A DNA stretch of 64,000 bases from NCBI GenBank assembly GCA_905178155.1, contig CAJINV010000006.1:2173700-2237699 (forward strand). The letters run 5' to 3'. Shown piece after piece: positions 10,973-48,300 of this stretch (position 1 is the stretch's first letter; every line of letters begins with the position of its first letter). Below the pieces are notes generated by a model, which was not told the DNA's origin, ran no database searches, and was given only the letters and a program-made list of their open reading frames with translations. The DNA comes from Amoebophrya sp. A120. Taxonomy: Eukaryota > Protista > Dinoflagellata. A program made the translations under genes and the position numbers.

Positions 10973-13900
10973 TTACTGCGGCAGCGGCGGTATGTTCGAG
11001 GAGTGGGTGAGCATATCGTGGGGAAAAAGTGCTTCACTGTAAGGATTCCGAGTTTGGATTCAGAAGGTTTGCATCGCAAACTTACTCTTGCTGTACTTCG
11101 GCAGGACAAAGCAAATCTCCTATGTGTGCTTCCGAAAACAAAACAAGGCGAAGAATTCTCGGCCGTGCATGTGTAGTGCGATAAAAACTTTTGTGCTGAC
11201 TACGTACACGCGGCATCACAAGTTCAATACAGTGAAACACGTCATCTTTTCATCCCGATAGAACAGGTACTCCGCCAGGTAGTCCACCGGATCCTCTGGC
11301 ATCACCTTGCACACCTCGATCAGTCCCTTCACGACCTGATAGTGTCGTGTGGATTTGTTGTTTCTGCATGACAGGTTCTGCTTTCTCGATTCCTCATACC
11401 ACGCTTACAACAGGTTATTTCTTGCACCAACACAGATTTAAATGCAACACGTTGCCGCGACTTTGACAGAAACACGATAGACAATAGTAAAACAATAAGT
11501 ACCTCCGGCACCACGTGTTCCTGCATGTAGTTCTTCAGCGGCAGGGACAAATTCTGCAATTCCTCCGCCGTCTTTGACTCAATCTCCGGTAATCCTGTCC
11601 AAAAGTACTTCCAATATCGCCTAACTCATACGAATATATTTTTTGCAGACTAGCATGACAGATACAGAAGATCTGGTTTCTTTATTCGAATTCGCATGAA
11701 AAATAACACAAACCTGTCATTTCTCGTCCTGCTTCCGGAAAAGAGCAAACGTAAACCTGTCATGCAACTTTTCTGTGTACTGATGCTGAATGCGATAGTT
11801 GAAAGTACTTTTATTCCAACCTCATACCGCCAATCTGGAGTTTGATTCGGTGTTCTGCATCTTCAACAATTTCTCTTCCTTCTCGTAGATGACACGCTTT
11901 TTTTCTTCCTCCTCCAATCGTTTCCTTTCCTCCTCTTCTAACCGCTTTTTCTCTTCTATCGCTTTCAATTCCTCTTCCGTTATCCCACGAAAAAACTGCT
12001 TCACTGTGATGATTTTGCACGATGTGCATCACAACAAGTTTGTATACGCATGACACTGAAAATCTGTCATGCGCGCTTCCCAAGGGAAGAAAACACGCTT
12101 GAAAATCCAATGTCTTGCAGGTGTAGCAAGACAAATAGCTGCTCTGTGTTCCATTTTCTGCATCACAAGTTCACAGTGAAACAGTTTTTTCGTGCGATAT
12201 CCGTTGGGAAAAAGTTGAAAATCTTGTCGTTCAACACCGATTCGAACGCGATTTTGAACTCGTTCAGCAGCAGCTCGTGTAATCTTTCCGGCGTGGTTTC
12301 ATCCGCCCCAAGAATGTAGTCCAACTCCAATTCGGGCACTCGGTTCGTCTTCGTCGTTGGCAACAGGCCGACTAACTCGATCTCGGTCGCTATGACAGAG
12401 CACAGCTCTCCCTCCCCCTCATTTGTCATGCAAAGTCCCCAATCCAGTGAGTCGCTCGCGCTGCCTTGTATTTGTAGCACTGCTTCTTGCATGACAAAAT
12501 CCGAAAGCCCAAGCAGTACTACATCAGGTACACAAAAAATTTGTCATGCGTAGCCTCCACGTGTACTGGTGTTTGTATTGCTGTTCATGCTATACAAATG
12601 AGGGGGAGGGCGGGTTGCGCAATCTCATAGTCCTGTTCCCGTCCAGAAACTTGTCGGAGGAGAAGAGATGCGATGCGGGAAACTGGTATCCACAGTAAAT
12701 TTCCCGTACACGTACAGAGGCGGTCTCTGCATGAAAAAACTTGGCTTCGATCCTAGTTTAGCATGACAAGTTTTACGCTCCAAATTGGTGAAATTTGTGA
12801 TGCATGTTGTACATGTACGGCAAATTTGTATTGCATAACTGGATGAAGCTCGGTTCTTCGTATTCCGGATACTCCGGCTCTTCTGGCGGCTCAATGGGCT
12901 TCGGCTCCACTTCCTCGCCCGTTTCTTCGCTTTGCTGCTTCGCTTCCAAAATCGCGGCCTGTTCTAACTTATGGATCGCAAAAGCATCGCGATCGCGCGA
13001 CTAGTACAAATTGCATGACAAACTGGCTCAGCATGACAAATTAAGTTTGTAATGCTGAGTTATTGATGCCTCAAAAGGAAACTTCAACTTGTAATGCAGA
13101 CTTGCGATTAGTACGAGTGAGTGCGATACTTTTGCAAGGGATATAACTCCTTGATTTGCGCTGCGTACTGCTCTTTCAGCTCGTTCGTCTTTTGTTGCCA
13201 CTCATCTACGTTAGAGAAAACTGTCCCCACTACCCCGGTTTTCCCCAAATCAAAATTTTTTTTATGAACTGATGCAACAACACGGCCACCGGCCGCGCAG
13301 CCCGCCCGGATAGTGTCCGCTAGTGGATCTTCTTCACGGATACTTTCTGAGGCTGTTACGTATGCAATGGAGCAAGCGGGATAGCGGCGCGCAAAAGTCG
13401 GCGCATGAGCTGACGGGGCAGCAAGCTTTGTGGATGTGTGTAGCTACTTCGGCCCCATCCGCGCGTAGGCTACTGCAACGCGGCCCCGCCACACTGGCCG
13501 CGCCCAACTTCTGAGGCTCCGGCCTCACCGTTTCCCTGGAGGTCGTGCATGCGTACCTTTTCGGGAGGTTTCTGGTGCTCGTTTTGGTGGCCGAAAGTGC
13601 GTAGATAGCTGCTTAGGGCCGAAATCCCCAGCATACGTTTTTTTTCTCGCCAGCGTGTCCGAACATGCACTCAGGGAAACGGTGCCGGCCAGCCTCAAGC
13701 GGAGAAGACAGGTTCGCGGCAAGGGGCATTGCGTTCAGCCTTAGGTGGCCGGGGGGCGGGTCTGGCATGGGCGCCTTGCCCAGGGCGCTGCCTCGCGGGG
13801 CCCGAGCTGCTTGCGCCCCAAAAAGCCGGGCAAGGCGTCCAGTGTCTTTGAGTCCAGCAACACACCTGGGGGAGCGGGTTTCGGTCTGGCCATTCGCGGC

Positions 13901-26716: not shown

Positions 26717-29700
26717 CTTTATTACAGCGGTCGACGTGGCAGCTGCAACTGAAACGAAAAAAACGATCGCGGCGCCGGAACTACAACTGAATCGTTGTTC
26801 CTTGTCCACGTTTTAAGTACGCGTAGAGAATCTCAATCTGAATTGATTCAGCTTAGTCACTTCTCATCCATTCATATTCATTCTTGAAGACTTCTTTCAC
26901 GAAAGTTGATGTACAACTACGAATTATACCACCTGCTTCAACGCCCGGTGCTACGTAGTACCTACTAAACTTTACTTCCTTTCCCTGGTCGACGTCGACC
27001 TAGTAACTACGTATTACTATTTTTGAAAACGATGTTTTTTGATGAGGAGGAGCAAAAGCGCACTGTTACTTACTTTTCACAACACAACGTCTACAAACAC
27101 GAGGAAGCAATAACCATGACTCCGAGGTCGCTGGTGGATCAACGAAGCTGCACGACCACAGCCGAAAATGCAAGGCTCAGTAGATGGCAAGCAATGGTCA
27201 TGGACATGGTGTGATCTTCGACGTGATCTACTTTTAATTTTTCCTCGCGGTTGAATCTCTTCAATATCAATGGATCAACATGCTAGGAACGATGAAAACG
27301 AAGACAGCTCGTGAGGAACACGACTTTCACTCATACGAGGGCACAAGGCAGCAACTACTTGCAGTAGTGCGCCGCAGGGAACGTTTGCCCCTGTTTGGCA
27401 GCAAGAAGCGCTGTCCTTTGGATTTTTGTCTTTCACACCGGCGGGAAACAATCACGCGAAAGAAATGGTTCTAGTACTTGACACAAGCGTGCCAGGAAGC
27501 CAAGTTATTCGAGGTGCTGCAAAGTGTCAACTTATTCGAAAACAGTTTCGTCTACAGTTTCCACAAGCCAAGTTATTCGAGTGTCAACGTTATTCTTTTT
27601 TCTTCCGCATCTACAGTTTCGATGTAGTGGAGTTCACCTCACCTGTCTGATACAGTTAGCATAGACTTAGAATGTACGCTAATAGCGGTGTTGTTATAGG
27701 TGAATTTTGATTTTCCGCTCCAGGAGTTGCAGCTAGCTTCTACTTCTTGTCTCTGACTTTCGCTGTCGTTCTTGGCTCTGTCCTCTGTACTAGGGACAGT
27801 AGAAGAGTTACTTTCCATTTCCTTCCTTTGTTTTCTTTCTGTGAGAGTAAGTACCCTATTGCCCTCTCGGTGTATCTGTAATCTAAATGTAGGGATACTA
27901 CCTATCAAATCTGAGCTCGCTCTTTCAATTTCAATTTTCTTTGGAAATAGAAATTGAAAAAGAAATTGATTTTCTTAGGGATGGTAAAATCAATTATTGT
28001 TATTGACGAGTACGCATACAATCTTCAAAATTATCTCTTACTGTGCTGTATTCTCAAGGTAAACCCGTCCTCCGAGACAAATCTTGGCGTCTTTCTTCGA
28101 AAGGGATAAAAGACCGGGGATGCGGTCCTGTATCCTTCCACAACTAGCTTCCTTCGGGCACTACGGGTCGTACTTACATAAAAGAGTTTGGGTAGTTTCT
28201 GTTTTCTTCTTTATTGCTGAGTAGAAGTTTTTACAAGATGCATTTGCGTATTGCAGCATTTTAGATAGACGTGATTAATTTCTCCATAGTTCAACAAGCT
28301 CTACTCGGGAAGACAACAACATTCCAGCGGACTAGACATTTCGAATCGGACCTTCTGCACGAACGTGAATGCCACCTCCGCTTTATTTTGCTGCAAGTGC
28401 AACCACGAGTGAGATAAGCTGAAGAAAATTTTTTGCGAATGTTAAGATTAAAGAAACGAGAAACACAGGTCAAGATTAAAAGGAAACATCTGTATCCGGC
28501 TATTTTGTTGGTGCAATATTATTTGAGAAGTTCGAAACAAAGATGTAAACGTATCTGCAATATCAATTCGAATCAACAGGGAGGGCACGTACTACGAAAC
28601 AAAGTTTTAAACGCACGGTGGCTTGGTACATGAGACCCGCTGTGTTTTTCCACCGCTTCGAGTCTTCTAGAAAGTTGGGTTTCAAGGATTCGGAAAAGTA
28701 GGAGGGCGCACGTAAACAAAAACAAGGGAACCTATGCGGGTTGCTTGTTTGTTTGTGGTGCTAGTACAGGTGGTAGCTCTAACAAATACAAAACGATTGC
28801 TGAGGACTAAAGATGAGCTCAAGATGACCTGATCGTAGAGTGACCGCAACGAGCAGTGGCTTTGGCCACGTCAAACTACTTCTGTAAAAATCTCATAATT
28901 GAAACAACCTTTACTTTTTGGAAACTCAAACTCGAACCGCTTGATGGCAATATTGTAAATATAAAAATCGTATTCGGTATTTTCGTTGTAAAACAAATCT
29001 AACTCATCTGTGCACAAATGTAGTCGAGCGTACCCGTAGTTGCAGCTCCTGCTAGTATCTGTGTAAAACCAACAGGGCAATTTGGTTTCGCTGTGCGCAG
29101 GAGCGAATGGCTGTGCAAGATATTTCAAGTCAGAAAATCGTGAGTGTTGTGGAACTCCTGAATAGAATACCGTAACATGTAAATTTTTATTGTAAACTTT
29201 CTTGGAAAACGAATTTATAGAGTTACTAAGTGACCCAGAGAGGCAGGTACTTTGCAAGCTCTTAGTTGTCAAGCTCTCCTCTGGGAATACGAATATCCCA
29301 GTCAAGTTTTGTAAACCTTTAAGTATTTTTTTGTAGGGCTATTGTTGAACAACTGGAAACACATATCGAGCTCTCAGCTCTGAACCACCGTGGCATAATT
29401 GTTTTTCTAGAGTCGAGGATTTGTAGTTGAGACTAAACCTGAAGCTGAACAGACGAACCCTGTGTAAAGTAAACCTAAACGTGGTATCATATATAGCGCT
29501 GCGATTGCTATCTAGTGCTTGATCCTTAAATCTGCTACTCATCATCTGCCGGAAACTTTTCGAACCTCCGTCACTGCACGATCTAAATCAATCGATTATC
29601 GACCAGAAAACCAAAACTTGTCAGGGTCAAGAAAATTGCACACTTCGGTAATTTGCCGTGAAACTACGCAGGCGAATTTTTCAGTACTACTAATTTGCAG

Positions 29701-31320
29701 GCTATGACTGACATATAACATCATGTAGCATTACAAATGCAAATTTTATTTCAATTTTCTCGGACGCTGGCAAGTTGATATTTCTGGTCACACTGCATAT
29801 TAACATTCTGTCTTCGCCGACACCAAATTCACAACACCATCTCCTCATTGCATGTTCGAGAAACAGCCGCCTTTCTTGCTCTGTCCTAAACCGCCTACTG
29901 AGCCTATGGATTGCAACTATGTCGGCAGGTCTGGTGGAAATTTGTAACGGTTGCAGGTGGCTGGTGCCTTCGAAACGAGTAAACCACTTTCCAGCGGAAC
30001 CAAGCATGACAAGTCCTTTAAATGGTGTCCCATGCCTAGTTGTGCGCAATACAGCATGCGTTCTTGGACTACAGACCGATGCGGTGCTTTTGTCTGCTTC
30101 GCAGTACTAGAGGTTCTGGTTCTACAGCATCAATGCAAACCATGGAATACTTACAAGTTACAACATTCTATTGCACACAGACTCAGAGAACATAGTTGCA
30201 AAGGATACGAAAATTCAATTTTCGATTAACGTCCGCCGTACTTGATCTTGAAATTTTTGGAAGTCCACCGTACAATATAACTACCTGTAGAAGATTGTCA
30301 TTTTTGTTTTGAATTTTAATTAAGCATACTATATCATGCTTGTTCTAAATCTAGCATGTGATGTGCAAATACATTCATTGCGTTCTTTCCGTTTGAGATT
30401 CAGTAGTCGTTATGCATCACACGTAGGTAAATCCACTATCCACGGTGCAGCACATGACAAAGCTGTACCAGTATCGTTCCGTCCCACGACCGCATCAACA
30501 ACACCTCGCCCAGCTGGAACTCCAAGCTTGCCGATAAAAGTAAAATCTACTAAATCGTCTAACATCTTCCAGGTTCTTCAATAAGTTCGCTCCCGCAAGA
30601 GTACAGCAAGGTCGCTTGCTTGGAAAATTGAAATTCCAGTTACCTCCGCAACCGATCTATTCCTTCGTGCTGGTGGTCTCGTCTAAAACGTCGCTAATAC
30701 TGATACTCGATAAAATCTTCGATTGCCGGCACCGGGTCCTTGTTTTTATTGTGAAGATTGGTTTACTGAGTATCAGATATCACGTGTGCGCGTGGCTTAC
30801 TTCTTTTGCATGACAACGTCAAATTCCAATCATGCTGAAGTTGCTTATGTTATTGAAGACAGTGCAACAGATTTTGCAAGACAACAACAACTGCAACTCA
30901 GAATCAAAGTACCTTTCCTATAGATAAGTAACTTTTCCTTGCGGTCTCCCGACAACGATTCCGGATGTACACAAGCGAAAATTATCGGCTCAACAAAAAT
31001 CGATGCTTCGTCTCGAAAACTGGTGTACGGTTGGTGACGACAATGTCAATGTCGTCGACAATGTCAATGCCGTCATGATGAAAGATGGTGTACTAGCGGA
31101 AGTTCTTGTGAGCAGATGCGCCGAGGACTGCAGCTGAAGTGACTGAGTTCTTACAGGTGGAAGAAAACGGAGGAGAACGTGTAAGTGTATCCATTGTTGT
31201 AAATAATTCCCCGCGGTCGTACACGCACGTACAAATTCTTGCATGACAATTGATTATCTACATCTTTATTGTATTCGCGCATGACACGTGCCGGCTTCGT
31301 AATCAAAGTTGCAAAAAAGA

Positions 31321-31521
31321 TATGGCGGCGTTAACTACTTCACTTCTAACTATTTCAAATTTTTTGCTTGAGGTAAAAGCATCCCCTTTATATAGGTAGT
31401 TAAAGTAGCTACTTTAAATAGCTACTTTAAGTAGCTACATCATTAATTGTAGCTGATTTGTAGAGAAAAGCTCGAATCCGTCTCCACGACGCTGTGCTGC
31501 CACGGACTTGTCTCGGAACGC
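31321..31521 (+). repeat. Left terminal inverted repeat
   Basis: Reverse complement of 42558-42758; contains tandem TAGCTA-centred palindromes. Confidence 0.95.
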
Positions 31522-31899
31522 TTGCCGGAGATGTCCATGGTTCTGGAATACACGCACTAGACAAGCGAAAAAACCTCGGCTCCAGCCCTACTGTATCGGT
31601 ATAGAGGACAAGTTTGACACCTAAGACACAGACAGAAGACTACTACTCGGGGAGAGATGCTGGAGCTAAAATGGGGTCGGTTCTGCAGGGTGATATTGTG
31701 AATGGTACAGCCTATTGAGTACATAAATTGCGTGTTGAATTTAGTGCATTTTCAGGCCTATTATATCTTCTCACAGCATTGCTCTTGCCCCTCAAAAACC
31801 ATACTCATCATCCCGACTTATTCTGCGATTTTTGGATCTCGAAGATTGTTGCGAGTTGCCCTGTATTTGATTGGTTATCTTGATCTGAACACCCACAAA

Positions 31900-33195
31900 A
31901 TGGGGACCCGTCCTCACTCGATTGAAGGCAAAGGATTGACAAAATTTATAGAGCTTGTTTCTGATGACTTCGAGGTAATGCGTGGGCTCGAGCTTCGGGC
32001 GGACATTTTCATTCGTCAACGCGTTCCAGTATTTCGAGGTGGGCGGCAAACTGCAGAATGGATGGCGATTCAATTGAAGATCTGCAGCACAAGAGCCATG
32101 GCTTGGAAACGCAAGATGCGCATGATCTTGCGCGACGATCACGACGTTTTGCACAACATCATTCTGCTAGGTGTGCCACTTGATGGAGGAAAATGCTTCG
32201 TGCATTTGGTTCATCGACATTTGCCTTACGAGCAATTCGACATGGACAACGTCCGCCACAACTGCACCCCAGCCCACCACCTGGGCCGTCGGCTGCTGCA
32301 GATCCAGAACAGCGGCTCCACGCCGCTGATGATTGAGCCCTCCCGCCCACATGTTTATAGCCGGGCGACTTTGGTGGAGAATGATGCCCGCAAAGACTTT
32401 CACAGAATGCTCCAGAAGGCCGGAATTCGGTACGAAATGGGGCCGCGAGAGTACGGCGCTGTCGATGGATTACTTTCACTTGCCGACGCTCCAGACCGCA
32501 CATTTCGGGCGCAAGAGAAAGCTCTGTCTCTCCGTGCTGATGATGAAGGAGATGCAACTTTGGCGTTGCGTTGCAGTCTACGCAGGTACCAATGTTGTTG
32601 CTGTTTTGTCCTATTTGGCGTTGATCGGCTGAAGTTCCAATCACAAAGCAACAAACAACACCAACAGGTCCAGCGGAAACGTCTACACAGTAGAAGACGC
32701 GGACTACTTGCTCCTCCATGCCCTGGACCGCCATAGATGTGCATGCGATGATCCCCACATAGTCGGGCGCGCTTTGGTGTCCTTTGCAGATTTGGACGCC
32801 CACGGTTACTCGAAAAACAAGAGGAAAAGGCATAGTTGTAAAAAGGCTTCTGAGTATCATTGGCACTACATAATTCTAGGTGTGTAAGGCTAATATATGC
32901 TAGCACTGACATCTATGAAAAGAGGGGCAATTACACATACAGGACGGAGGGGATTTCGATGCTGTCAATCTATCCTGAAGTAGATGGCATTAAAGCCCCA
33001 CGATCAACATGGCTGGAAGACCGATATCACGACCGACGACATGTTGCTGCTGCTATCAAGACCGAGCTTCAGCGCGCGAACGAAATCAATACCCGACGAA
33101 GTCTACGTGAATCAGATGCGGACGAAGATGATGCACGAACCGACGAGTCGTGGCTTGGTAAACTGCTGGACATGTTTCCTTGGGTCTTCGAGTAG
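31900..33195 (+). CDS. Tandem (twin-domain) PD-(D/E)XK-type endonuclease, probably 3 exons
   Basis: Domain 1 ELRADIFIR..EWMAIQLK; domain 2 EYGAVDGLL..RAQEK; after a 49-bp GT-AG intron (32586-32634) YTVEDADYLLL..ALVSFADLDAHG; last exon GNYTYRTEGISMLSIYP. Second intron not precisely placed. Confidence 0.65.
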
Positions 33196-33689
33196 AGCGA
33201 CCAACTACAACTACCGAGCAGTGCATGTACAGCATCCGACTTCATCGGCGGTCGAACATCCCCACTACATGGACTAGAACACGCAGAAAGGCGACAGTGA
33301 CAAGCTTAGCATTTCAGTTTTTCAACGCGGTGATACGGCGGCACAGTGTTGCCAACACAAATTCTCGCTTTGATTACTGTGTGACTCTTTCTTTATTTTA
33401 TTTTACTTCTACTCCTATGTCTTTCGTTGTAGTCGGGCGCTGTACTAAACTGCGAGGTTGAAAGTTTTGCACTTCTTATTTTTGTTGTTTTGTAGCAGTT
33501 TTGATCCTTTTCCATCTACTATTAGTCACTATCACTTTTACTTTGTTAGTCATGCAGTCTGATGCTAGTTTCATTTGTTTTTCACAGAATAAAAATAGTG
33601 TAGTCGAACTGAATAATTAATAGTAAATTTTTGCAACACTCACTAGTAAAACGCGCGACAATTATTTCAACCAAAAATATTTTGACAAT

Positions 33690-36600
33690 TTAATCGATTT
33701 TGCGACTGGACGATGATGATGAAGAAGCCTGCTTTGATGTGTTAAAGGAGACGCTTTTATCGTTGTCTTTATTCACTTTTTTCATCACGGTAAGTCTCGG
33801 CACCTCCTTTCCCTTGACGATCAGTCTTTTCGCTCTGTTCGCCGCCTGCACCATCTTTCGTTTGCCGATGTTCAGATGCCACTGCGGATCAAACATCAGG
33901 ACGTCGGACATGTTGATACCGTTGGGATCGATCGCTTCCACGTACATGTGCTCCGCCGAAAACTTCCACTCGCGTTCGATGCGGGGGAAGAAGTTATCCG
34001 CGATGTTTTTCTTCGCATCCGGCTCAATATCACACTCCGGCGCGTACAGCTCGTGCGTCGGCTTGTACTTCCGGTGGTTCCACGTCAGCCGCAAGACGTC
34101 ATCGCACATGCCCTGATTGACGCGGTGGGATCGCACAACACCAACAACCATCGGCCGCTCACCCGGTTTCGCGTACTGGATGTGGAGCGCCAACTTGGCG
34201 GCTTCCTTCGTGCAGCCAGATTTGCGGGAGGCGGTGGACTGGCGGGATTTTTCCACGACCTTTGGCGCACTTTCCGCAAGCTTCGCTTTTTTCGCGTTTT
34301 TACGGTCCTGCGCCAGATGCTCGAACTCGTGGCCATCCATGACGACCTGACGCTTCTTCCGCTGGTCAACCTTGTCCTTCAAAATTTCGATTACCTCCGC
34401 TTCGGCGTCACCGGTTTCCAGCATCCGCTTGTAAATCCGAGCGCGGACGGAGGAGTTGATTGTCGTCAGCATTTCGAAGGTAGTCTCCGGGTGCAATTCC
34501 ATGAACTCCGCCAGCAATTTATGAATTGCAAAATGACACTGTAGTCGTGCTTGTTGTAGTTTTATTTTGTTCATGAAGCAACTTGCTACGCATGATATGC
34601 ATGACAAATTTATATGATGCAAGATCTGAAGAACTACAACAACGCCACTACAGAGTGTCATTTTGCACTGCGGTATTGATCCATCTGCGCGTCCTCCTTA
34701 GCATGCGGAAACCAAGCGCCGCAAATCACGTCCTTGCTGATCCACATGGCGTTGCACGGGATGTGCAGCACTGTTCCTTCCGGGTTGAGCACGGTGCCGT
34801 CGAAATAATCAAACATGCTGAGCGTGCCGCTTTTGATGTACTTGCTCAAGTCGACAAACGCCTCCTCCTGGAAATCGTAGTGGTCTGGTTTGTCGGTTCT
34901 CTTCAGCTGTATTCCAGTGGCGTACGCGCCGTTCTGCATCGGCACCGCAATCGGGGGGGAAAGCCGGTCCTTGCGGATGATCACAAAACCGCGCTCCTTG
35001 ATTTTCTCGCTGATTTTCTTCACGGTGGCGAAGTTTTTGCTCGCGCCTTCGTGGAACAAGCGCTGCAGCAACGGCCAGGCTTCATCCACCACGGTTTTGC
35101 ACTTGATTCCCCGGAAGCCAAGATTAGTAGCGGAACAGGTTGCAGTAGTTTCATCTCCGGCATAATCAACAGCAGCTTTGATTTTTTCCGGAGCCTTGCT
35201 CTTCTTGTAATCCGCGTACGCGTTGTCAAGATTGCCCTTGATGTCCAGAAGCTGTTTGATGTGCATCGTTTTGCCCTCCTTCTTCGCCTCGAGTTGTAGT
35301 TTCTCCTCGCGCTCCTTGAACGCGTCCTTCAGGCACTGATCAGTTGTATTTGGTTGACTCAACATCTCGATCTTGGTGACGGACAAAATATCCTCGACTG
35401 GGATGGACGGACACTTCTCAATGCTGGACAACCGCGGGGCCGGTGGATAATGCGGATGACACTGAGAAGCAAGTTCGCGATGGCGCTGCTTGCTGCCGAG
35501 GGAGCAATCGGGGTCGACGAACATGGCGTATTGTGTTCTCGTCTTCCATTGGGTTTCGGATTCTTTTTCGAAGATCGGCCTCCCCTCGTTCACGAGCCGC
35601 ACTTGCCGGGTCAGCAGATCGCGCCTGGTAGAGGGTTCGACACAGAGGCACCTCAGCGCCTTCTTCGCAAAAATCGGCAGATTGAAACTCAAGTCCTGCT
35701 GGAGGCACTGCAGATTCCGGGTCTGGGGCGCGTACCGGTTGTGGCAGATGGACTCCCAAAAGCCAAACACCGGATCCCAGCAATCGAACCAGTACGCGTT
35801 GAGACAGCGCGCGACCATCTTCCATCCGGTGGTGAAGTGGAGATCACTGCGATGCATCTTCTTCTGCACGTCGAAAATCATGTTCGTCCAGGTCTGCGGG
35901 CGCATTCTGGCAAACCGTTCATTGATCTCCGGCGTAGTCAAAGTGGTATCGGAAAGCATGACAACCAAAACTGCAATCTACTACACTAGAACCGAATTTG
36001 TCATGCAAGACACGTCATTAATTATGCACTTTGGTATCAGTAGTAGATGGCAGTTTTGTTTGATACGCTGCAAGTCTTCACCGAGGTACGTAGCGCCGCG
36101 CGCAGCGGAGCGTAGTTGCGTTCTGCAGCATTGTGGTATCGTTGCCGAGTCGCGAGCTCAGCGCTTCTAACAATCGCCAGTAGTTGTACATCGGCATGGT
36201 CATGTCTTTCTGCACCTCACGGTCCCAATACGTTACTTTCCGCAACAGCCCGTAGTATTGCCACGCGTAGCCCACAAAGGTCTTGCTCAGCAGCTTCTCA
36301 TCATTTTTGTCGTCTTCGAACTGCAGCTCCGCCGGAAGAGGTTGCGGCAATTCCTTATCCATCTCCGGCGACCACAGATCGTTGATTTTATGCATGACAA
36401 ACACTGCTATTGCCCTTGAAAGTTGACGAGTCAGACTGAAAAACGCATTTTATGGCTGCAAAGTTTCGGCATGAGCAGATGTTCCTGCGCATGACAAATC
36501 ATGCACATAGGCAATAGCAGGGTTTGCAAGCATAAATATTGTCTCCATCTTCGTCAATTTGCATCTTCGGATCCCACTTACCTGGTTTTTTGAATGGTTG

Positions 36601-38962
36601 CAGTACTCGAGTATCATCATGGATTATATATCAAAAAGCGCATGACAAATTCCAGGAGCTCCTGCTTTTTTGCATTGCAAATTGCTTGTTTACAACAGCA
36701 CTAGACTATGTCGCTTTGCATGACAAATTGAAAACGAGAAACAACATCAAACCTGCTTTGATGAGCTTCTGCTTCTCCTGCTGCATCAACATCCAGAGCA
36801 ACAACATCAGCTGGCACTGGTAGTTATCCAGCATGAAGGTGTGCTCCGTTGCTCTGAACCAACGGGCATCCGTACCGTGCAGGATTTTACAAACTGGTGA
36901 GATTTTATTTGTTGGAATTCATCAAAAAAACAAAAATGAAAATGACTACTTGAAGTGACTACCTTTTTTGGTGGGCAAAAGGGGGGAGCAAACCGCCGGC
37001 TTTTGAAACCATGAAAAAAATGAAATAGTTTTGTAGCCACGATGCTATGATGGATCAAAGCAAAAAACTTTTGCTTCGCTTTTGCTTCACTTTTGCTCTA
37101 GCAAAAGGAGGGGGAAAGAGGTAGTCACTTCGGAAGGACATTTTCCACCATTTCATAAAGCAAAATGTTAAAGATAGTATAATGATTATGCATGACAAAA
37201 CCAGCAGCAAGAAATGATAAAAGCAATACACTCCTCGAAGCACTCGCTGTAAGTTTCGGCTGTTTTATTCTTCTGGCTCAGCAGCTGCTTTGCATGTTTT
37301 CTTTGTATAGCTTCATCTTCCTTTTCGACAGCTTCTTCCTTTGCTTTTGTATTGCAGTTTTTCAACTTGCTCTGGTTCGTTCCTTTTCCTTTTGGGCCTT
37401 TGATTGTTCTCCTCCAGCCGGCAGCAGATGAGTATCCACATTCAAACACACGACCAACTACAAACCCGAAGCAATAATAAAAGAATACTCCGAGCAGTGT
37501 CATGCACATTGGTGGTACTTCAGGTTTGTAGTAGTCGCGTGTTTTGCTGACATACTTCTTCACAGGCCGCGTTCACATCCTTTGCGATATTGCTCGCTTT
37601 GTGCGCCGGAGGTTGTGCAAACACGGCGCACTGTTGCTCGCTCATCCGCAGGCACATTCGCAGCTCCGGCGCGCCTTGGTCCGGAAGAAGATGAAACTGC
37701 GTGCGGGGCTTGACTGGTTTCTTGCATTCGTCATCGAGCATCCAGGAGGTGATGTCGATATTATCAGCGCCGACATTCGGGTCGTACAGCATGCTCACCA
37801 CATGATCCGCGCCAAACATTTGCGTTTGCGTCATGAGAACTCCCATCGTGCTCTTCTTCGTCGCGGCATACGACTCGACATCTTCCCTGGGATCCTCCGT
37901 CGCAGTTGCCAGCGGAGTCGGGTAGTAGCAAACGTCGTCCTTCATCTCCACAACTCCGCTTGATTTGTTTTTGTGGGCAAACTCGTCGCACCAAAAGACC
38001 TGGGAATAGTTTGTGTGAGTTTATTTGTCATGCGTAGCTGTCCATATAACTGCAGTGCAGATCCACATCAAACACAGCAAATGAAAAATCCAATACGTTC
38101 ACGCCCCAAACGTGGTTCTTCATCACGTCACTGTAATCGTAGGAGCCCCCGTATTGGTTGGAAGCGGAGCCAGGTGAGTGGTGGAAAAACTTTGAAAGTC
38201 TTTTCAAGTACGGGCTCATGGTCTCGGCGAGTCGCATCTGCAGCTGAAACGCGGACCATTGGCGACAAAACCACTCCTGGACTGAGATGAGGTGTTTGTT
38301 TTGTTGTGTTTCAAAAGCCAGATCATGCATGAAAGACATTTTTTTTTTAACGTCTGCATTGAATCTCGAACAACATCTCCAGGCATTCCTGTACCTGTTC
38401 ACGCTCTTTCTGGCGGGTCTCCTTGTTCTTTCGGCGGGCGTTCATCTCCGTGTCGGTATAAGTAACCATTTTTTCGATCGTAGCGTAGTAGTTTGCTACC
38501 TCGACGCCCGACACTACATCCTTGAACGGACACACACTCATCATCTTGCCCCAATCTTGCGCAGAAGCTGTCGTCTTCCGGTACAAAAGCAGGGATACCT
38601 GATAGATTTCGTTTTATCGAATAACGCATAACGAACTACTTCGCTTTCTTTTCACATCCGCACTATTATGCATAACCCCAAATCGTATTAAAAGGCACCA
38701 ATCCATGCGGACGATCAAACGTCTTCGGCTCTGGGCAGACGATACCCAACGGCATGAGAGTATCGGGAGTTTTCGCGAGGTCCCGCACGTAGTTGTTCAA
38801 ATCTGAACACGCCGTCTTGAGGTAGTATTTCCCAACGCCGGTATCTTTGCACAGATACGGAATGTACCACTGACGAGTACGGTTCTTGCGCTGCGGTGAC
38901 GCGACGTCGTGCAGATCAGCAGCGACGTCATTCCGCTTGCCGCCACCAGGTGACGACCACAT
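33690..38962 (-). CDS. Large multi-exon element protein(s); N-terminal part has tyrosine-recombinase-like motifs
   Basis: GC3-rich exons with GT-AG introns in the 5' part: ..PHGL|VSLLLYRKTTAS..|..LSKFFHHSPGSASNQY..; further exons about 37555-38000, 36078-36390, 34676-35950, 33690-34514. May be one or two genes. Confidence 0.55.
34520..34675. mobile_element. Family-A-like introner inside the large element's gene
   Basis: TATGAATTGCAAAATGACAC...GTGTCATTTTGCACTGCGGTA; removing it plus 5 nt gives in-frame AQMDQ|LAEFM; DR decayed. Confidence 0.7.
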
Positions 38963-40038
38963 CTTGTCCTCCAATTATCTCTCTACGGATTTACAATTAT
39001 GTCGAACGCGCTTTACTAGATTCTGGAATGCGACGAAGTGATTGTGGCCCGGAAACCATCGACATTGCCTCGACACACTCTCGTAGAAGACGCTCAAGCA
39101 ACAAAACAGCTCTCATCTGACCCTGCCCAACATCAAACAAGACCGAACGCGTCAACAATAAGCCCAGGATCGCGCTTGTCTGCTGAACAACGCCACTATC
39201 TTCACACTACAACAAACCACATCCTTCATGGTATAGAAGCAACTTGCGCACATGATTTTTTACTTTTGTCCGGGAATATATCTTTATTTTTATAAGAACG
39301 TTCAAAATTTTTTGATTAGTACTTTTCGCAGACCTACTACATCGTCTTGCTAGCTCGCGAGCTTTTGCAGCTTCTTCTGTGTTGTGCTGTGTGTAGAATT
39401 TGTCACGTCTACTACTAAGTACCAATCAGAAGTCGTTGCTTTGTGAGTCGAAATGCAGTAGTCCTCTTCTGCTCAGAACTTTCGACTCTCACTGAAGATT
39501 TTGTCGCGAAAGTGGTAGAAAGTCATAGGCTTGCACGGAAGATGAAAGAGCGGGTGTTTCGACCAAGCAGTTAAGTTGTAGCAAAGCCTCACGATACAAG
39601 AAAAAGCGATGATCATGGACAACTACCGAGAACAACAGATGTCGACATCAAGCCTCCTGATATGAAAGAACAAATGCCACTACTTTTCACTATAAATGTG
39701 ATGTTTTTGGCGGAGGTAATACTATATGTAGAGACTCAAAACTGGTCACGTCAATACGAAGAACATGTAGCTCGTTAGCTCCGCACAAATAAGTGCCTGC
39801 TACGATATACTTTTACAGTAGTTGTAAGGTAAGAGCGTTAAGCTCAAAGCCTATCACTACGCATTTGTGCAATGGAGTTTACTTACGCTGCACTACGGCA
39901 AAAAAGGTCACTCTATATGCACTGTAATAAATAGACGCGTTGAAAAACTCTTATCTGGTAGCGTCACATGATCTGAAGAATCGATGAACCCTAACTACCC
40001 TACCTAAACCCACTACACCTCAATCTCACAGATCGAGC

Positions 40039-41762
40039 TCACTTCTTCTGCCGCTTCGAGGTCGGAGAGCACGACGGCAACGCCTTGGACTTGGCCTTCG
40101 CAGACGGCTTCGCGGAGGACGCGGCGTTCTTGGGGTTGGGCACCAACGGCGGGGTCTGGGTGCGGGCAGTGTTCTTCGCGGAGGCCTTCTCCTTCGCCAC
40201 CACCTTGGGTTCGGCCTTCGCTTTGGCCTGCGGCACCACAGACGGCGTGTCTAGCAGGTCGTTGGTGGTGGTGGACTGCTCCACGGCAGTGTTGTTGGCC
40301 ACCGGCGGGTTAGCAGCACCTGATAGTCGATAGAAGATGAAATTTGAACTATAACTACACGAGATTCGGGGCACAAGGAGATCGTCTTCGTAGGAAAGCA
40401 TACTACTACCAGAACCAAACCGAAATCGCAGTGTTGCTCTTGTGCAATCAGATCAAAAACGTACCCGTGACAGCATCGTCGTCAATCACCACCTGCGTCT
40501 CCTGGACCTGCTGCGGCGGATCATCCTCCTCCGGCGGCAACAAGGTCTCGATGGTGGTGACCGTGGTCTCGGTGGTCGGAGTGGGCGCGTTGGTGCTCGT
40601 CGTGGTGGACTCGATGTTGGCATTGTGGTTCGCGAGCGCCGACGCGGTCAGGCCGGACGAGGTGGCCTCGCAGGTGTTCGAGGAGGCCTGGTTGGGGACA
40701 AAGCCAGTGATGCCGAAGGTAGACGGCGGCGCCGGTCCGCGGTTGGCGGTGACCAGCCCGACCACGCTCGCGGCGGAGGAGTGCATCTGCAGGTGCCCGG
40801 CAGCCTGCATCTCGGACAAGGCACCGCACTAACTGGCAGAGGAGGGGATCAGCTGCTGTTTTAGTATATAAATCGCGATTGAAGAAGCAGCGATGGGTAC
40901 GAAGTGGTGATCTCATAACACCAATGCAATGTGAAATAAAACAACCATCATCTATACCGGCGCATTCCCGTTCGTGTGCGGCATCAAGTTCTGGGTGTTC
41001 TGCGTGGCCGCAACGTAGCTGGAGGAAGAGCTGCTCGACGACGACCCCTGGTTCGTGTTGGTGTTCACGGTGACGGCACCGACGGCGGAGCCGTGGGTGT
41101 TCAACTGCTGGGCCTCCACACCGAGTTGGGCACAGGTGGGCATCGAGCGGAACAACTCGCGGACGGTCTCGGTGGCCAGCTCGCTGCGCAACCAGCGGAC
41201 GGTGGCGCGGATGCTGCGCTGGCCGGATTCCGCCTTGGGCAACTGGTAGCTCATAGGTCGAGAGCATATCCGACGAATCATGTATAAAAGATTCATGCAT
41301 AACAGGCATGACCAAAAGGGATGTTCACAAAAGGGGTGCAAAAGTCTATGTGCTTTCCAGTCACTGGCCACGCCGGCCTTCTCGATGAGCCAGATAAACT
41401 GGCGGGGGTGGCGGAGCAGCCTGCAGACCTCGGTGTAGCGCAAGCGGCCCCACCCACTCACAATCATTTGGCACTCGCGCACGTGCAGTTGAAAAAATCC
41501 TGAATATTATGCTTTACTGCATCACGTGCGCATGAAAATACACCAAAAAATTTGCATTACAAAAATGAAGCTACATGGTTCATCGACAGTTGTAAAGTTC
41601 CAAGCTGCAACTCTATCAGAAACACTTGATCTCGGCCACTGAATACGGTCGGCGCCGGAATCGAACTGGTGGCTGGACAAGGCGGACAAGGACAACCATC
41701 CCTCCTGCAAGGCCTGCACCTGCTCCAACCGCTCCTCGATCGCCTCCATGACCAACTGCAGC
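40039..41762 (-). CDS. Uncharacterised multi-exon element protein with Ala/Thr/Lys-rich C-terminus
   Basis: GC3-rich exon blocks (about 41630-41760, 41350-41480, 40985-41250, 40470-40830, 40039-40320) separated by AT-rich introns; no family recognised. Confidence 0.55.
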
Positions 41763-42557
41763 TCGCTTATGGTATGAAACTGAAATATCGACCTTCGTGA
41801 TGCACGAACATCTTTATGAAAAGCATGACGCAATCATTGCACTTGAGCTTGCAAATCATTCTCATCACGAAGGTTGATTTCATATACATACTGACCGAAA
41901 TTCGCGAAAATTCCGGACCAGTAGTCCTTGGGGGAGGAGTGCTGGTTGTTGTTGGGCTTCTTGTTGCCGCCTCCAGATCCGGATCCGCCAGCGTGGACAA
42001 CAGTGTGGACGTGGTTGATGGCACCAAAGTTCACGGTCAACAGCACCGGAAGGCAGACCACACCGAAGCAGCAGCTAGCCAAAGAACGCATTTCCGAAAA
42101 GGATTCTCGTTGACCACAAAAGCAGTCGACAAAGCATTCACCCTACGGCTGTTGATTGGAAAAGAGGATTTTTGTAGTGCACATCACTCGACTATTGGTG
42201 AAAAAAAAACATTTGCAGCAATTGATTGGATTTCTACGTTGAGAGAGTGGAAGCTTCTTCACATCGTGTCACTTTTCAGCATTGTCGGACCACTCGTCTT
42301 CATTGGATCTTCACATCAACACACAGACACACAGGTGGACACACGAAACAATAACTGTCGTTGGCATTTGGGCACGCGCGATGCGGTGTATCATGGAAGA
42401 AACTAGACAACAGCGAGAGAGCATTTGTATACTATGCATCATCTCAAGCCAGCGTCATTGATCCGTTCTAGCCAAGCCTCAAAAGTCCTCTTTTTTCGCG
42501 GTTCAGATCACGTATTTGGTGGCGCAGGGCCCGAAGCTAACCGCGACGGTATGATGG

Positions 42558-42758
42558 GCGTTCCGAGACAAGTCCGTGGCAGCACAGCGTCGTGGAGACG
42601 GATTCGAGCTTTTCTCTACAAATCAGCTACAATTAATGATGTAGCTACTTAAAATAGCTATTTAAAGTAGCTACTTTAACTACCTATATAAAGGGGATGC
42701 TTTTACCTCAAGCAAAAAATTTGAAATAGTTAGAAACGAAGTAGTTAACGCCGCCATA
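42558..42758 (-). repeat. Right terminal inverted repeat
   Basis: Reverse complement of 31321-31521. Confidence 0.95.
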
Positions 42759-43179
42759 AAAGATGGCTGCCATATGCATTTCTTTTTGTTTTTCCTTTTC
42801 GTGGGTGGACGTGTACGGGAAATTTATTTTACATAATTAACGCGGTGGTCGTGGACACCTGCAACAAACAAACTTGCGGTGTTCGTCCTCGGCTTCGAGA
42901 AGTACTTGATGTTGTAGTCGATGAACTTACTTAATAACGTAAACCAGGTGCACTAAACGACAGCAAGCGCGGCAGTGGTAAGGTGTAGTAATACTGCTAA
43001 GAAAAAACAAAGCGCGGAAGCAGCTGTGGTGAAGCAGGTTGCAGCTGTTCTCGTAGTGCAGAAAGATGTGGCTGGTGCAGGAGCGACGAAAAATATGTAA
43101 AGAGAACCGGAGCAACAGCAAGTTCTGCTAACATGTCGATCAAATCTCGGTGCATGCGGTAGCTTCTCCAAGAAAACGG

Positions 43180-43464
43180 CTAGCCGTTGCCGTCGGGGGG
43201 AGTAGTATTAGTTGCTTCTGTAGCGGTCCCGGTCGCGGTGTAGCGGGGGTCGCTTTCAAACAGTTCCTGTAACTCGTCAGGGCCGCAAGAAGATGTCATT
43301 TTCGGGGGCAGCAATTTCTCAGGTGGTCGCAGGTTTGGGGGTGCGTTCACTTCGCCACAACACTTTGATTTCCAGGCTTCATCCTTTCCACCTCCTTCTC
43401 CTTCACCGCCAGCCGCGCCCCCATCTGGCGGCTGGTCCGCTCCTCCCGCAGCCGCCGAGGGCAA
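43180..43464 (-). CDS. Probable terminal coding exon of an unassigned gene
   Basis: Host-like low-complexity ORF (..GGKDEAWKSKCCGEVNAPP..DGNG*) without an ATG; upstream exon not identified. Confidence 0.35.
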   Translation of the reverse strand: MPSAAAGGADQPPDGGAAGGEGEGGGKDEAWKSKCCGEVNAPPNLRPPEKLLPPKMTSSCGPDELQELFESDPRYTATGTATEATNTTPPDGNG

Positions 43465-44695
43465 TAATATGCTGCATTCTCAAACGTTGCACCCCATCTG
43501 CTGCGGCCTAGCTTTCATCTGATACTTTGTCATGCACAGCCTTTACTTCATCTTCTGCATCACCGATCATCGTCATGGAAAAGACACCCGAAGCACCCCG
43601 AGCCACAGCCCAAGCAAGGACCGCCTCCCCGGGGGGTGGGCGAGGCATGCCTCTATTTGGCAACGTCACGCAAAGTCGAGCGCTACCACCACCACGACAA
43701 GTCGCGCACACGGTGCCCGTCACGTGGAAAACGCCCAAAGCCAATCAACAGAACCGCGCCACATAGCAAGGCGCGACGCCACTAACATGACAACTTTCAA
43801 GAACGCAACTCATTTTGCGCCAAAGTTTATTGCTTCAATGGAAGGGGAGCCTCTTTATTTGGCCAAGAACCGCCCCCCCCCTTGAGCCGCGAGCACGGCG
43901 GGACAGGGCAGGCTGGGCCTTTTGTGCCTAAATTGCTGCGCGAGCGGCGAAAGCTAACACGCAACCAAGCGCACAGGCCACAGGCACCAAACCGTAGACC
44001 AGCTGCTCGGCAATGCTGACCGACAGCCCGAGACCGGGCACCGCGACAGCGTAAAGCTAAAGGCTTCGCCTATGCGTAGCGGCAGTCGGAGCGCGTCGCG
44101 CTGAGTTGTTCTGCAACAAGAAAGACAAAAAAGGGCGGGAGGTGCGACTGGGGTCTTCTGCCGACTCCGTAAAAGAAAACTTCCCCCTGCCGGCACCACT
44201 TGGTCTTCTGTGTGCCCTTTTGTTGATGCGCTGTGCCGTTCGTCTGCCGCCACCATCGACGACCCACCCAGAATGGGGCGCGGCCCTTTTGCAGGTGTCG
44301 CCAGAGAATGCCTCAACCTGCCCAGCATTTCATCTGCAGGCGCCCACCTATGGAGGGGGCGGCCGGGCAGCCAGTAGCCCAAACCCCTATCAGTTTTTTC
44401 ACTTTTCTGATTTCGTTTTCTTGTCTTCGACTTTTCATCCGACGAAGCCGAAGAGCACGCGCTGCGTTTATCATTATTGCTCGGGCCTTTTGCTCCTGTT
44501 GCCAGTGAATCTCCTGCGCCCCTATGAACTCGAATTGGCGCCCCTGCTTGAGCCACATTGCAAATTTACTTACCACGCTTGAAGACTGCAGACGAGGTTT
44601 TACGTGACATCGGAGAGCTACTGGATGTCCCGGTGGCGCTTTGGCTCCTTACTTAGTAATATAAAAGGATACAGCCAAAGGAATAGGAAAACCAA

Positions 44696-44836
44696 TTTGC
44701 AGCTACTAGCTGCAAACTACTACTAACTACTTTATAGTATTTTACTAAGTAAAATACTATAAAATATAGTGGGTTATCAAATCAAAAGTAAAGGTTACCT
44801 GGTAACCTTTACTTTTGATTTATTGTTACCCCACTA
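44696..44836. repeat. Three adjacent perfect palindromes with 1-nt loops
   Basis: 44696-44716 (10-bp arms), 44731-44763 (16-bp arms), 44779-44821 (21-bp arms, enclosed by TAGTGGG/CCCACTA). Confidence 0.9.
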
Positions 44837-45364
44837 ATAGTAAATCTAATTGCCTTGCTTTTTACCTGTCGAGATATACCGACGGGGTATGGGGCCATGC
44901 GCAGCGGTAGGCGGCGGCAAGCAGCAGCGCAAGTGGTAAACCACTGAACAATCAGAACAAAATACGGCAACGATCACTGCCACGCGGGGCGCTAACGGTG
45001 CAAACCTACAAAAGCATGGGCCTACATGCAAAGCTTGTAGCAGACAGATGGGCCGCGCTCACATAGAGAGACGGTGGCCAAACCAAAACATAAAGAGACG
45101 CTGACACACAAGCCGAGGCTTTGAGTGACACATCACCATGCCCATACAGATCATGCCCATGCAGAAACAGAGAGGGAACTTGCTCACGGGCATGATCAAG
45201 CTGTTTTGCATGAGAGAGGGGCTGTGGCGCGGTAAATACTAGCATTGAAGAAAAATAAATGTGCAAAAAGGCACGAAACAGTATCTGCGACACGCGCAAA
45301 GCCCCACGTCGGGTGGTCGTGCCTTTATTCATCTTGTATGAAGAAGATAAACGTGATAGTGATA

Positions 45365-48300
45365 CTACAGAAAAAATGCATCAGTTGAGGATACAACGTT
45401 TGCGGAGCCCATACCAGCTGGGAGGCCACATTTCTTTTGCCATGTTGTCCAGAACAATGCCTTGATACACTCATTGACCGTCGGGGCCTCGTGTCGTTTG
45501 CTACCCGTCATCATAGAGCCCAATCGGTTCGCAGCGTTTGTCACTTTATGGCTGGTGCAGTTTGACGCTGGATCTGGTTCTGTTTGAAGCTGATTGTTGC
45601 CCGTGTACGGATGGTCTCCTTTCGAGCTGTTCGTTTTCTGCACTTTCGTGCTTTCCTGGCAGCACGTGTGAAAAGTGGGCATATCCCTAAATTGTAGATC
45701 TAAGTTGCTCCCTTGTTGTCGAGCCTTCCCCACTAGAAATTGCCAGTACTTTGAATCCCCACCAGCAGCTTCGTTGGTTTGCACGGTACCCTCCGCGGCG
45801 CCGTCGTCCGGTAGCCACCATTTGGATTTAACCGCTGCCTCGCCCGTAATCCGGCACAGTTCGTCCAGCTTCAGTTTTGCGTTAGAAGAGAATACTCTTC
45901 CCCCGCTTACTGAGTGCCCCACGGCCTGCATCTTGTTCCCAAGCCAGCCGAACCTGCCGAACGATGTCGCAGCTCCTGCGCCGGCTCCTCTCAAATTCCC
46001 CACCTGCGTCTTGCCGCGGTGTAGCCGTGCCGCGTTAATATTTTTCATCTCGTCGCCAAAAACAGTCCGACCTACTTCCAATTCGCGCATTCGAGGTGGC
46101 GGAGCAGGTACGGAGTGGAACAGGGTGCGCTTCACGACGCGTGGTCCATCATGATCATGAAGGTTACTCTCCCGCCGTCCTGTTGCCGAACTGGAGATGT
46201 GATTCCTGGTAGTTGTCCTAGAAGAAGACGAGTCCGTGTGGTCCCCCTGCTCCTGCATCAACGGCGACGACGACGACGCCGGTAGTTGCGGGCAATAAAC
46301 TCCTCTCGTCCTGGTCCGGGGTGCCGGTGAGTAGAAGAAGGAAGAACTCTTACCCCACGATCCAGAAGAACGGCGACTGCCGCTGGTCGCGAACAAACCA
46401 CTGACGGTGCTACTCTTTTTCATCGAGTAGGTGAGATTTTCGGTAGTTGCATTTTGGATCATGTTTTCATCCCGGAGAAAACTTGTGTCCCTATCCCCCG
46501 CCAAAGTGCCCGTGAAACTGACATTTCTCCTCCGCCAACCTCCTCCTCTCGTTCCCGGAAATGAGGGTGTCTTGGCCGTCCGGACCGAATCTCCATTCAC
46601 GGTCGTTGTGAAGGAAGTTGAAGTTCTTGAACTACCAAACCTGTTCTTCAGATTTACCGCAGACGCAAAGCAGGAGCTAGTACTACTGGAGGAGCAAGAA
46701 CTACCCCCGTTAGAACTGTTCTTGGTGAGGATCAAGTTCTGGTTCATTTGCCGTGGTCGTGCCGTTGAGAAAGTTGTCGTCCCGGATAAGTCATCCCCTC
46801 TTTCTGGTCCTGTCGCCGCGAGAAAACTGCTTGCCGTTGCAAATCCACCCGCTCGTCCTACACCACTGCCACGACCACCGTTCGAATCAGCATGATGAAC
46901 ACCTGCGTGTTGGAAGCGATTGTCGTTGTCCTGGACATGATCTGGTGGTCCTCCTCGAACCCGTACCCGACCAGAAGAAGCCGAGGAGGATGCTGATACA
47001 TTTACATCATCATCCGGTGCGATCATGCTAAACGAGGTCTTGTTGTTCATGTGCATGTTGTGCTGGGGAAACCCCGTCATCCTCCTCGAGGAATGTCCAG
47101 AAACAAGTGGTCCATCAACCGCCGGCACCAGGGGAAAGGCCTCGTCCCCGTGGTCGCCTCTTCCTCCCGTGACGTCGGTAAAACTAGTGCCATGATGGTT
47201 CGTCGTAACACCACCCCCGCTTCCCCCGGAAGTAGAGCTACTTGCAGATGAAAGCAGGGACGTGTGCTGGTGGACCGCGCCATGACCGCCGTACGTGCCG
47301 TTGTGAAAGATCTTGTCCTGATTTGGATACCCCAACACAGTATGCAGTGGAAATAGAGTATCTTTAGCTGTACAGCACAAGTCCTCCCAGTGTAAGTGGC
47401 ATTACAGATTTTTTTAAAAGGTTGCGGTTGGAAATCAGCATTACAAAATCAGTATTACCAACCTTTTGAAAAAATCTAATATAACTGTAATGCCATTTAC
47501 ACGATAAAACATAGTACGAGTCACAGATAGCACAACTTTTGCACACGATCATACACGGAGTGGTCGTGGAACTGGTGGTCGCCGTTCGTGTGTTACCCCG
47601 TGCAAACATGTCTGAGTTTGGAAGGGTGCTGATACAGCTTCAAGAACAACGCTGTCTGCATGACAAACTCCACTTTCGCGTGAAAAAAATGTTCTCATAC
47701 ATTTAGAGTCTCTTTCAATTATGACATGCAAGACAGATTCATCACATACACATTCACGACTTCAAGTTCTTTAAATTTCCCTTTCCCGACCCTGACGTAT
47801 AATTTGCAATCGCATATCGTGTATCCTGTGCAAAAGTATCGTATTCGTACTCGTAGTAATCGCAAACATCTATTACAAATTTCTTTCTCAAGTCAAATCC
47901 ACATTACAAATCTTATTTTTCATGCTGAGGAAACCTGTCATGCTCATGCGATTTATACTAGTACGATGCTTTTGCATTTCATATCGTGGAGGCTTCTCCC
48001 GTGGAGAGGTACTCCATCAACTATCCAGGAAAAAACAACAATCCCTATACATTCTATGCATGACAAACACATGATTTCAATTTCATACATGTTTTGTATG
48101 ACAAATTGGATGGGGATGGTTGTTTTCTCCTGGATATCAACCGCGTGCTGTACTCCACCAGTGCGGACTATCAAATGCAAATATGTCTGGGTCCCAAGAC
48201 TGCCCGGCTTGTCATGCATATAAAAATTCTGCATGACCATATGGCGTCCGTAACGCATGGCCGAGCATCGCAAATTTGTAGAAGACTTCCTGATGCCCAT

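Follow-up and report, generated by a model that had tools for sequence, protein, structure and literature searches.

A single-copy inverted-repeat transposon of Amoebophrya sp. A120 that encodes a likely novel DDE transposase and may belong to a lineage mobilising introners

In Amoebophrya strains A25 and A120 more than 60% of the introns are non-canonical, and a share of these are introners that bear terminal inverted repeats (TIRs). The locus described here raises the question of which enzyme might move such elements. It lies in a stretch of 64,000 nucleotides from Amoebophrya sp. A120 (contig CAJINV010000006.1, positions 2,173,700 to 2,237,699 of the forward strand; hereafter the window, numbered from its first nucleotide), in which an 11.4-kb element at 31321–42758 combines long TIRs with three genes. 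We find that this is almost certainly a real TIR element, single-copy and probably recent, and that its large gene encodes what is likely a novel DDE (Asp-Asp-Glu) transposase. The explanation that we favour on balance is that this 1,326-aa protein is a cut-and-paste enzyme of an undescribed Amoebophrya lineage, sister members of which mobilise the introners with TAT..ATA ends. Farhat et al. 2021, who found no putative transposase in A120 and only two in A25, rejected a general transposase mobilisation of introners (PMC7789003); their search used known Repbase domains and would probably miss the family described below. Gozashti et al. 2025 place the A120 introners in several transposable element (TE) classes, and their supplement gives the superfamily as 'Unknown' for the 30 A25 rows, of 60, that we examined (PMC12130899).

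The two TIR arms are identical at 198 of 201 nt (3 mismatches), the element terminates in TATGG...CCATA, and AAAGA stands on either side. This bears out the first-pass annotation of the window, which had described near-identical TIRs of about 201 bp starting with TATGG and an AAAGA target-site duplication (TSD). Among the long inverted pairs listed for the window these arms are the most complementary. We prefer to read the TSD as 5 bp because the direct-repeat statistics of the introners peak at this length and because a match to the TIR at another locus of the same genome begins at 31320. The left TIR contains short repeats of GTAG(C/T)TA type together with palindromes, which are possible binding sites for the putative transposase. 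In DNA contigs from one sample, depth is ~40 in the element and 43 in its flanks, the contigs leading from flank into TIR are unbranched on both sides, and the collapsed TIR contig is ~1.5–2.5 times deeper; the element is single-copy. From a different genomic locus comes a 562-nt contig with an end that resembles the TIR over its first 60 nt (9 differences, 85% alike), followed by 137 other nucleotides and then by a stretch like 36937–37088 (10 differences in 152 nt). This second locus, at which no element sequence adjoins the TIR-like end, is probably a non-autonomous relative of the element.

Runs X7 and X8, both from one sample, include probable-RNA contigs that join 31182 to 42836, and the element therefore sits within a host intron. 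Without the element, this is a decayed non-canonical intron of TAT..ATA type and ~210 nt in a minus-strand transcript. Two 151-nt probable-RNA contigs of X8 match the interior of the element, which has no other RNA coverage. These data suggest that the sampled cells carry the element and splice out all 11.65 kb; the joint could also stem from an allele lacking the element. The raw RNA runs X4–X6, with 1, 0 and 0 reads, amount to no test. Introner-type introns are spliced out in the probable-RNA contigs, and the remaining joints are consistent with the loss of an introner plus five nucleotides of duplication in total. The minus-strand host transcript (28500–45500), from which both canonical and introner-type introns are spliced, has no long open reading frame (ORF) and is probably a decayed gene or a non-coding RNA. 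Within these coordinates, an intron of 1,951 nt at 43464–45414 is skipped in an X7 contig; it has TAT..ATA ends like those of the TATGGCG-type introner family and AT-rich palindromes inside, and possibly contains a nested element.

The terminal letters and TSD of the element conform to a signature of the introners themselves. Pairs were anchored on inverted repeats only and the length of the direct repeat was scored afterwards. Of the 56 TAY..RTA pairs so anchored in the window, 22 show an exact direct repeat of 5 bp, none one of 4 or 6 bp, and one a repeat of 7 bp. Metagenome contigs scanned with one introner end gave 136 loci (754,579 bases) from one assembly of a related organism, where a 5-bp repeat is found in 268 of 422 pairs, against 4 at 4 bp, 2 at 6 bp and 1 at 7 bp. 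The combination of TA(T/C) ends and a 5-bp TSD is therefore an introner signature, as the first-pass annotation had proposed, and the 11.4-kb element shares it. The annotation's count of about 50 introners in the window was not reproduced exactly, 18 passing a strict scan and 22 of 56 a relaxed one. In the related assembly the introner-like elements are mostly 110–340 bp and non-coding; TATGG opens 47 of 536 introner ends there. Introner ends also come in a TATCAAATGCAAA type and a TATCC type.

Further elements of this kind were seen. The 796-bp element with TAC..GTA ends mentioned in the annotation was located at 13207–14002, and like a 318-bp TATGG..CCATA element at 14399–14716 it has an exact 5-bp duplication and TIRs unlike those of the 11.4-kb element. 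Larger TAT..ATA elements with 5-bp duplications occur in the related assembly (1.1 kb at L011 505–1608; 0.87 kb at L049 13016–13888); they are candidate derivatives with internal deletions. Across the window there are 32 occurrences of the motif TGCATGACAA or its reverse complement, commonly inside introners of differing families and within introns of the genes that the element carries; the motif may signal the splicing of non-canonical introns.

When homologues are mapped back onto the element, its minus-strand ORFs from 38962 to 33690 prove to be one gene. The annotation's three or more intron-bearing genes are thus three genes with introns, together filling the coding space, and most of the apparently separate ORFs belong to the large one. 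The 10-exon model of this gene is stop-free and every junction has an in-frame option of GT-AG or introner type; it is predicted from sequence alone, several junctions and the start codon being approximate. Decayed introners make up at least three of its introns, and the gene has therefore long been resident in an introner-rich genome, even if the present copy is probably a recent insertion. Neither the 432-aa nor the 148-aa exon had a match in word-based searches for homologues, and only HMMER succeeded: the exon at 37556–37999 matched 8 proteins among 1.84 billion representatives. Six of these, 426–1306 aa long (E 7e-7 to 6e-4), are Amoebophrya proteins, of which strain AT5.2 contributes five and A25 one; one of the six, P0004, is clustered with transcriptome-derived proteins. 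The two top-scoring matches (P0002 and P0003) were dropped as multi-stretch repeat proteins, one of them named as bacterial. The window protein is collinear with four full-length homologues (27–29% identity over 963–1167 aligned residues). Core identity is 25–47% among the homologues and 32–47% among the five paralogues of the one genome AT5.2, and such divergent paralogues within a genome are as expected of transposase families. No relatives were found in viral contigs, metagenome contigs, plasmids, phages, five metagenome-assembled genomes (MAGs) or the 136 introner-bearing loci, and the family of the large protein appears so far to be confined to Amoebophrya and is unnamed. We found no description of the element or of the protein family in the literature, Repbase and Roy et al. 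2023 (Curr Biol) being outside the scope of that search.

The first-pass annotation had seen no obvious transposase, a statement that calls for revision in the light of the 1,326-aa candidate. The family alignment has 75 invariant columns, which include D109, D223, H249, R339-W340 and E623 (numbering of the homologue P0009), all five intact in the window protein and arranged in the same order as in our comparators, four Pfam-confirmed hAT proteins; the Trp and Glu columns are covered by the four full-length homologues and the window protein. The candidate gap of ~400 aa between the second Asp (D2) and the Glu is long, of the insertion-domain type. Published D2–E distances are 325 aa in hAT, 253 in RAG1 and 206–214 in Transib (PMC1131882), and a conserved His after the second Asp is described for insertion-domain DDE transposases (PMC7780238, PMC3706591, PMC4763223). 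In the hAT-likeness of its flanks the chosen Glu ranks 1 of 91 and the chosen Trp 1 of 19; the anchors of this test were taken from known hAT motifs, which makes its combined p of 0.001 optimistic. We call the protein a likely transposase because of this motif order, its position inside intact TIRs and the five paralogues at 32–47% core identity. A conserved beta-rich C-terminal domain with an SHR motif is confidently predicted (P0009 ~1021–1110; window ~33950–34250), and no relative of it was identified. Other readings of the protein were rejected on the grounds that the residues concerned are unconserved in the homologues, namely the Asp of 'VFWCDE' as a first catalytic residue of Tc1/IS630-like type, a D..39..E spacing, and Walker A/B motifs. 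Bacterial MAG contigs carrying hAT-like transposase frames (L137–L142, L144 and L145; four Pfam-confirmed) are probably eukaryotic contamination.

The two smaller genes, E and D, are probably cargo or accessory. Gene E has one homologue (P0001; 36–37% identity, E 5e-34), in which its D..QxK motifs are conserved, and by eye it looks like a PD-(D/E)XK nuclease; Pfam, PHROG, PDB and Atlas searches gave no informative match. Tandem-repeat structure in gene E is unsupported, 667 of 1000 shuffles scoring as high. One half of the gene D protein is a long low-complexity region rich in Ser, Thr, Ala and Pro, and the first intron of the gene (41773–41890) is a decayed introner. Five exon ORFs of gene D had no Pfam match and three had no PHROG match. 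The features of the element are collected in Table 1.

Table 1. Coordinates of the element, its genes and its insertion site in the window
Feature	Position	Strand	Detail
Host intron enclosing whole element	31183–42835	-	RNA joint in probable-RNA contigs, runs X8 and X7
Left TSD, AAAGA	31316–31320	+	7-bp alternative 31315–31321
Left TIR, 201 bp, starts TATGG	31321–31521	+	Inverted-arm comparison
Right TIR, 201 bp, end CCATA	42558–42758	-	Inverted-arm comparison
Right TSD, AAAGA	42759–42763	+	
Gene E, 3 predicted exons	31900–33195	+	31900–32585, 32668–32853, 32943–33195; GT-AG introns, 374 aa, stop-free
Putative DDE transposase gene, 10 predicted exons	33690–38962	-	1,326 aa; mapping of homologues
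Exons 1–5 of large gene	38962–38699, 38598–38352, 38281–38103, 37999–37556, 37428–37230	-	
Exons 6–10 of large gene	36893–36753, 36620–36536, 36384–36090, 35977–34677, 34515–33690	-	
Candidate residues of large protein (window model)	38138, 37681, 37603, 36861, 35557	-	D219, D337, H363, RW456, E759, respectively
Intron of large gene, decayed TAC..ATA introner	34520–34675	-	
Intron of large gene, decayed TAT..ATA introner	36389–36534	-	
Intron of large gene	36894–37229	-	Part 36937–37088 recurs at the 562-nt-contig locus
Intron of large gene, decayed TAT..ATA introner, right after conserved His motif	37433–37554	-	Best-scoring junction
Gene D, candidate model of 6 exons	40039–42091	-	Spliceable to stop-free 489 aa

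In the mechanism that we propose, the transposase would have an RNase H fold that is interrupted, as in hAT, Transib/RAG1, P and MULE, by a large helical domain lying between the second Asp and the Glu. Such an enzyme would bind a family-specific subterminal sequence, cut at the common terminal TA(T/C) and make insertions staggered by 5 nt. Short derivatives that are not autonomous would land in exons, and an exon would be restored once the derivative and the equivalent of one 5-nt repeat had been removed from the RNA. Many divergent transposase paralogues would then give rise to many introner families alike only in their terminal letters and TSD length. In this scheme the fold, the catalysis and the action on introner ends are inferred. 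A broader reading, to which we give somewhat less than an even chance, holds that this is a new insertion-domain DDE lineage at the superfamily level (TAY..RTA ends, 5-bp TSD, a transposase of ~1,300 aa and an accessory nuclease), so far of Amoebophrya only, whose divergent members are the engines of the introner explosion behind most non-canonical introns, and whose own transposase gene has been colonised by introners.

Several observations weigh against the reading that a DDE transposase of this lineage moves the introners. On the side of the protein, 12 of the 75 invariant columns are acidic, and the catalytic triad is therefore one selected by context; the flanks of the other candidate residues rank only 14 of 74 (D1), 15 of 74 (D2) and 7 of 29 (His) in hAT-likeness. 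No ORF of the element had a meaningful Pfam or PHROG match, PDB sequence-profile searches of the large protein were empty as well, and hhalign against the four shallow hAT comparators gave a probability of 0.1, at a score equalled by 20 of 40 shuffles. The ESM Atlas gave no usable match. The AlphaFold2 models (predicted local distance difference test scores of 39.9 and 48.6, core below 50) yielded only generic helical matches in Foldseek PDB, Foldseek viral and VIA wide searches, so that at this low confidence an RNase H fold is neither shown nor excluded. The nine introns of the large gene, several of them decayed introners, would also suit an old host gene. On the side of the DNA, a 7-bp duplication AAAAGAT with ATGG...CCAT ends fits this single site equally well locally, and neither a second TSD nor an empty site was seen in the DNA contigs of the one sample. 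The annotation had proposed a search for further full copies with differing TSDs and had itself named a single-copy element without variable TSDs as refuting its idea; the single copy seen here answers to part of that. On the side of the introners, the best match of the TIR to any introner end is 16 of 24 positions, reached by 211 of 5000 shuffles (p ~0.04), and the TIR lacks the A-tract that is seen at positions 11–15 in 67–93% of 518 introner ends. Finally, strain AT5, with five paralogues of the protein, is reported to have 99.98% canonical introns (PMC11453091).

Given the missing A-tract and the weak TIR match, the element probably does not partner the abundant introner families directly, and it is unlikely that this very copy drives the main ones. 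The annotation's suggestion of an undescribed group of TA-ended transposons with 5-bp TSDs holds up as regards the signature and a credible candidate that belongs to no family recognised in our searches; it falls short as regards action on the window's own introner families. Terminal TA(T/C) and the 5-bp TSD are nevertheless common to element and introners, and one introner family of ~235–258 bp (9 of 413 distinct elements) starts with TATGGCG like the element, the same family that gives the best TIR match. By analogy with Transib, in which the TIRs of 21 families average 49% identity (PMC1131882), a more likely picture would be a set of autonomous elements that have diverged from one another, with separate miniature families belonging to each, and taken overall the lineage of the element plausibly drives the Amoebophrya introners. 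From the case of AT5, the enzyme may be necessary but not sufficient for intron gain, or may be unrelated to it.

In a rival explanation that has a modest claim on attention, the element would indeed be an autonomous DDE transposon and represent a new lineage, but another, unrelated enzyme would move the introners. The weak TIR likeness beyond TAT, the presence of the family in AT5.2 without non-canonical introns and the assignment of A120 introners to several TE classes (Gozashti et al., PMC12130899) all suit this explanation. However, TA(T/C) ends with an exact 5-bp TSD are a rare combination that the element has in common with 268 of the 422 introner-like pairs, the TATGGCG family starts as the element does, and a weak TIR likeness is normal within a superfamily, as in Transib (PMC1131882). 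It is decidedly improbable that the element is instead a non-autonomous 'pack' element which has captured three host genes, the large protein then belonging to the host or being a domesticated transposase. In favour of this, each of the three genes is rich in introns and carries decayed introners, the G+C content at third codon positions of the large gene is 0.69, no transposase match is statistically supported and the element is single-copy; but a near-identical parental copy is not seen in the DNA run, given the even depth and long unbranched contigs, a single genome contains several highly divergent copies of the family, and the invariant residues stand in the order known from insertion-domain DDE enzymes, with hAT-like flanks at the Trp and Glu.

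Two further explanations carry much less weight. The size of 11 kb, the long TIRs and the several genes would fit a virus-like or Polinton-like element, and conservation of the nuclease-like motifs of gene E in P0001, together with the existence of transposons with accessory nucleases such as KolobokP (PMC9587614), would allow gene E rather than a DDE enzyme to mobilise it. We regard both possibilities as very improbable: the three genes fill the coding space and match no polymerase, capsid, ATPase or integrase model, no relatives were found in viral contigs, Polinton ends and the Polinton TSD of 6 bp differ (PMC6839031), and the nuclease assignment is by eye only. An IS3EU/GingerRoot element with an atypical TSD, a link raised by the first-pass annotation, is largely refuted and scarcely credible. 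Its TAYGG..CCRTA ends match exactly (PMC12730594), and GingerRoot has TIRs of 100–150 bp and elements of up to 12.9 kb (PMC6839031); against this, the TSD is 5 bp (or 7) and not 6, the compact core of conserved motifs is absent from the element's proteins by eye, and the candidate D2–E gap is ~400 aa compared with ~35–50.

With a DDE transposase of the element's own lineage as the favoured explanation, the large protein represents a first concrete, intact and testable candidate for an enzyme that may mobilise introners, from a family invisible to Pfam and PDB searches. If this is true, extreme intron gain would be tied to a specific enzyme and a new lineage would be added to the DDE transposases. 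Since AT5 has the family and almost no non-canonical introns, our data also suggest that the tolerance of the host for odd splice sites, and not the enzyme alone, may decide whether an element becomes an intron.

Comparison with known systems places the element close to several and within none. The large protein resembles hAT transposases in its RW motif and a P-x6-E-x2-F motif, and differs from them in having no Pfam hAT match, no significant profile match, a length of ~1,300 aa with an extra C-terminal half, and TIRs of 201 bp. Relative to the C/DxxH motif of hAT, an invariant His lies 26 aa beyond D2, whereas the third residue ahead of this His varies and is not Cys or Asp. The region around the first Asp may resemble that of RAG1; no RAG1 match was obtained in Pfam or PDB searches. 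The hAT TSD is 8 bp (5–7 in hAT5, hAT6 and hAT7), so that the 5 bp of the element fits the hAT5 exception only (PMC12730594). Transib and RAG1-like elements share with it the 5-bp TSD and, by prediction, an insertion-domain DDE enzyme, and Transib TIR families share only terminal letters and an A-rich tract (PMC1131882). In contrast to the element, they have CAC..GTG rather than TAT..ATA termini, a D2–E distance of 206–253 rather than ~400 aa, and an SxxCxxC zinc motif after D2 that is not seen by eye in the large protein.

IS3EU and GingerRoot elements are alike in their TAYGG..CCRTA termini (PMC12730594), long TIRs, similar size range and extra genes, and unlike in their 6-bp TSD (PMC10045372, PMC6839031) and in compact integrase-like core motifs that, by eye against part of the published alignment, are absent from the element's proteins; these proteins have no integrase-type Pfam match. 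KolobokP likewise combines a DDE transposon with a separate small nuclease gene (PMC9587614), but its nuclease is of the His-Me finger type and its ends are long terminal direct repeats, as against TIRs and a possible PD-(D/E)XK-type gene here. The Polinton genes (pPolB, capsid, packaging ATPase and integrase) have no Pfam or PHROG match in the element, gene D having been left out of the homologue search. Judged by its sequence, the element would act like an insertion-domain DDE transposon that cannot be filed under hAT, Transib or IS3EU. From the Amoebophrya introners, which are mostly small, non-coding and spliced out as non-canonical introns, it is set apart by its three genes and its insertion in an existing intron rather than an exon, and it has in common with them TIRs and short direct repeats (PMC7789003, PMC12130899) and, by our own measurements, TA(T/C)..(A/G)TA ends and the 5-bp repeat.

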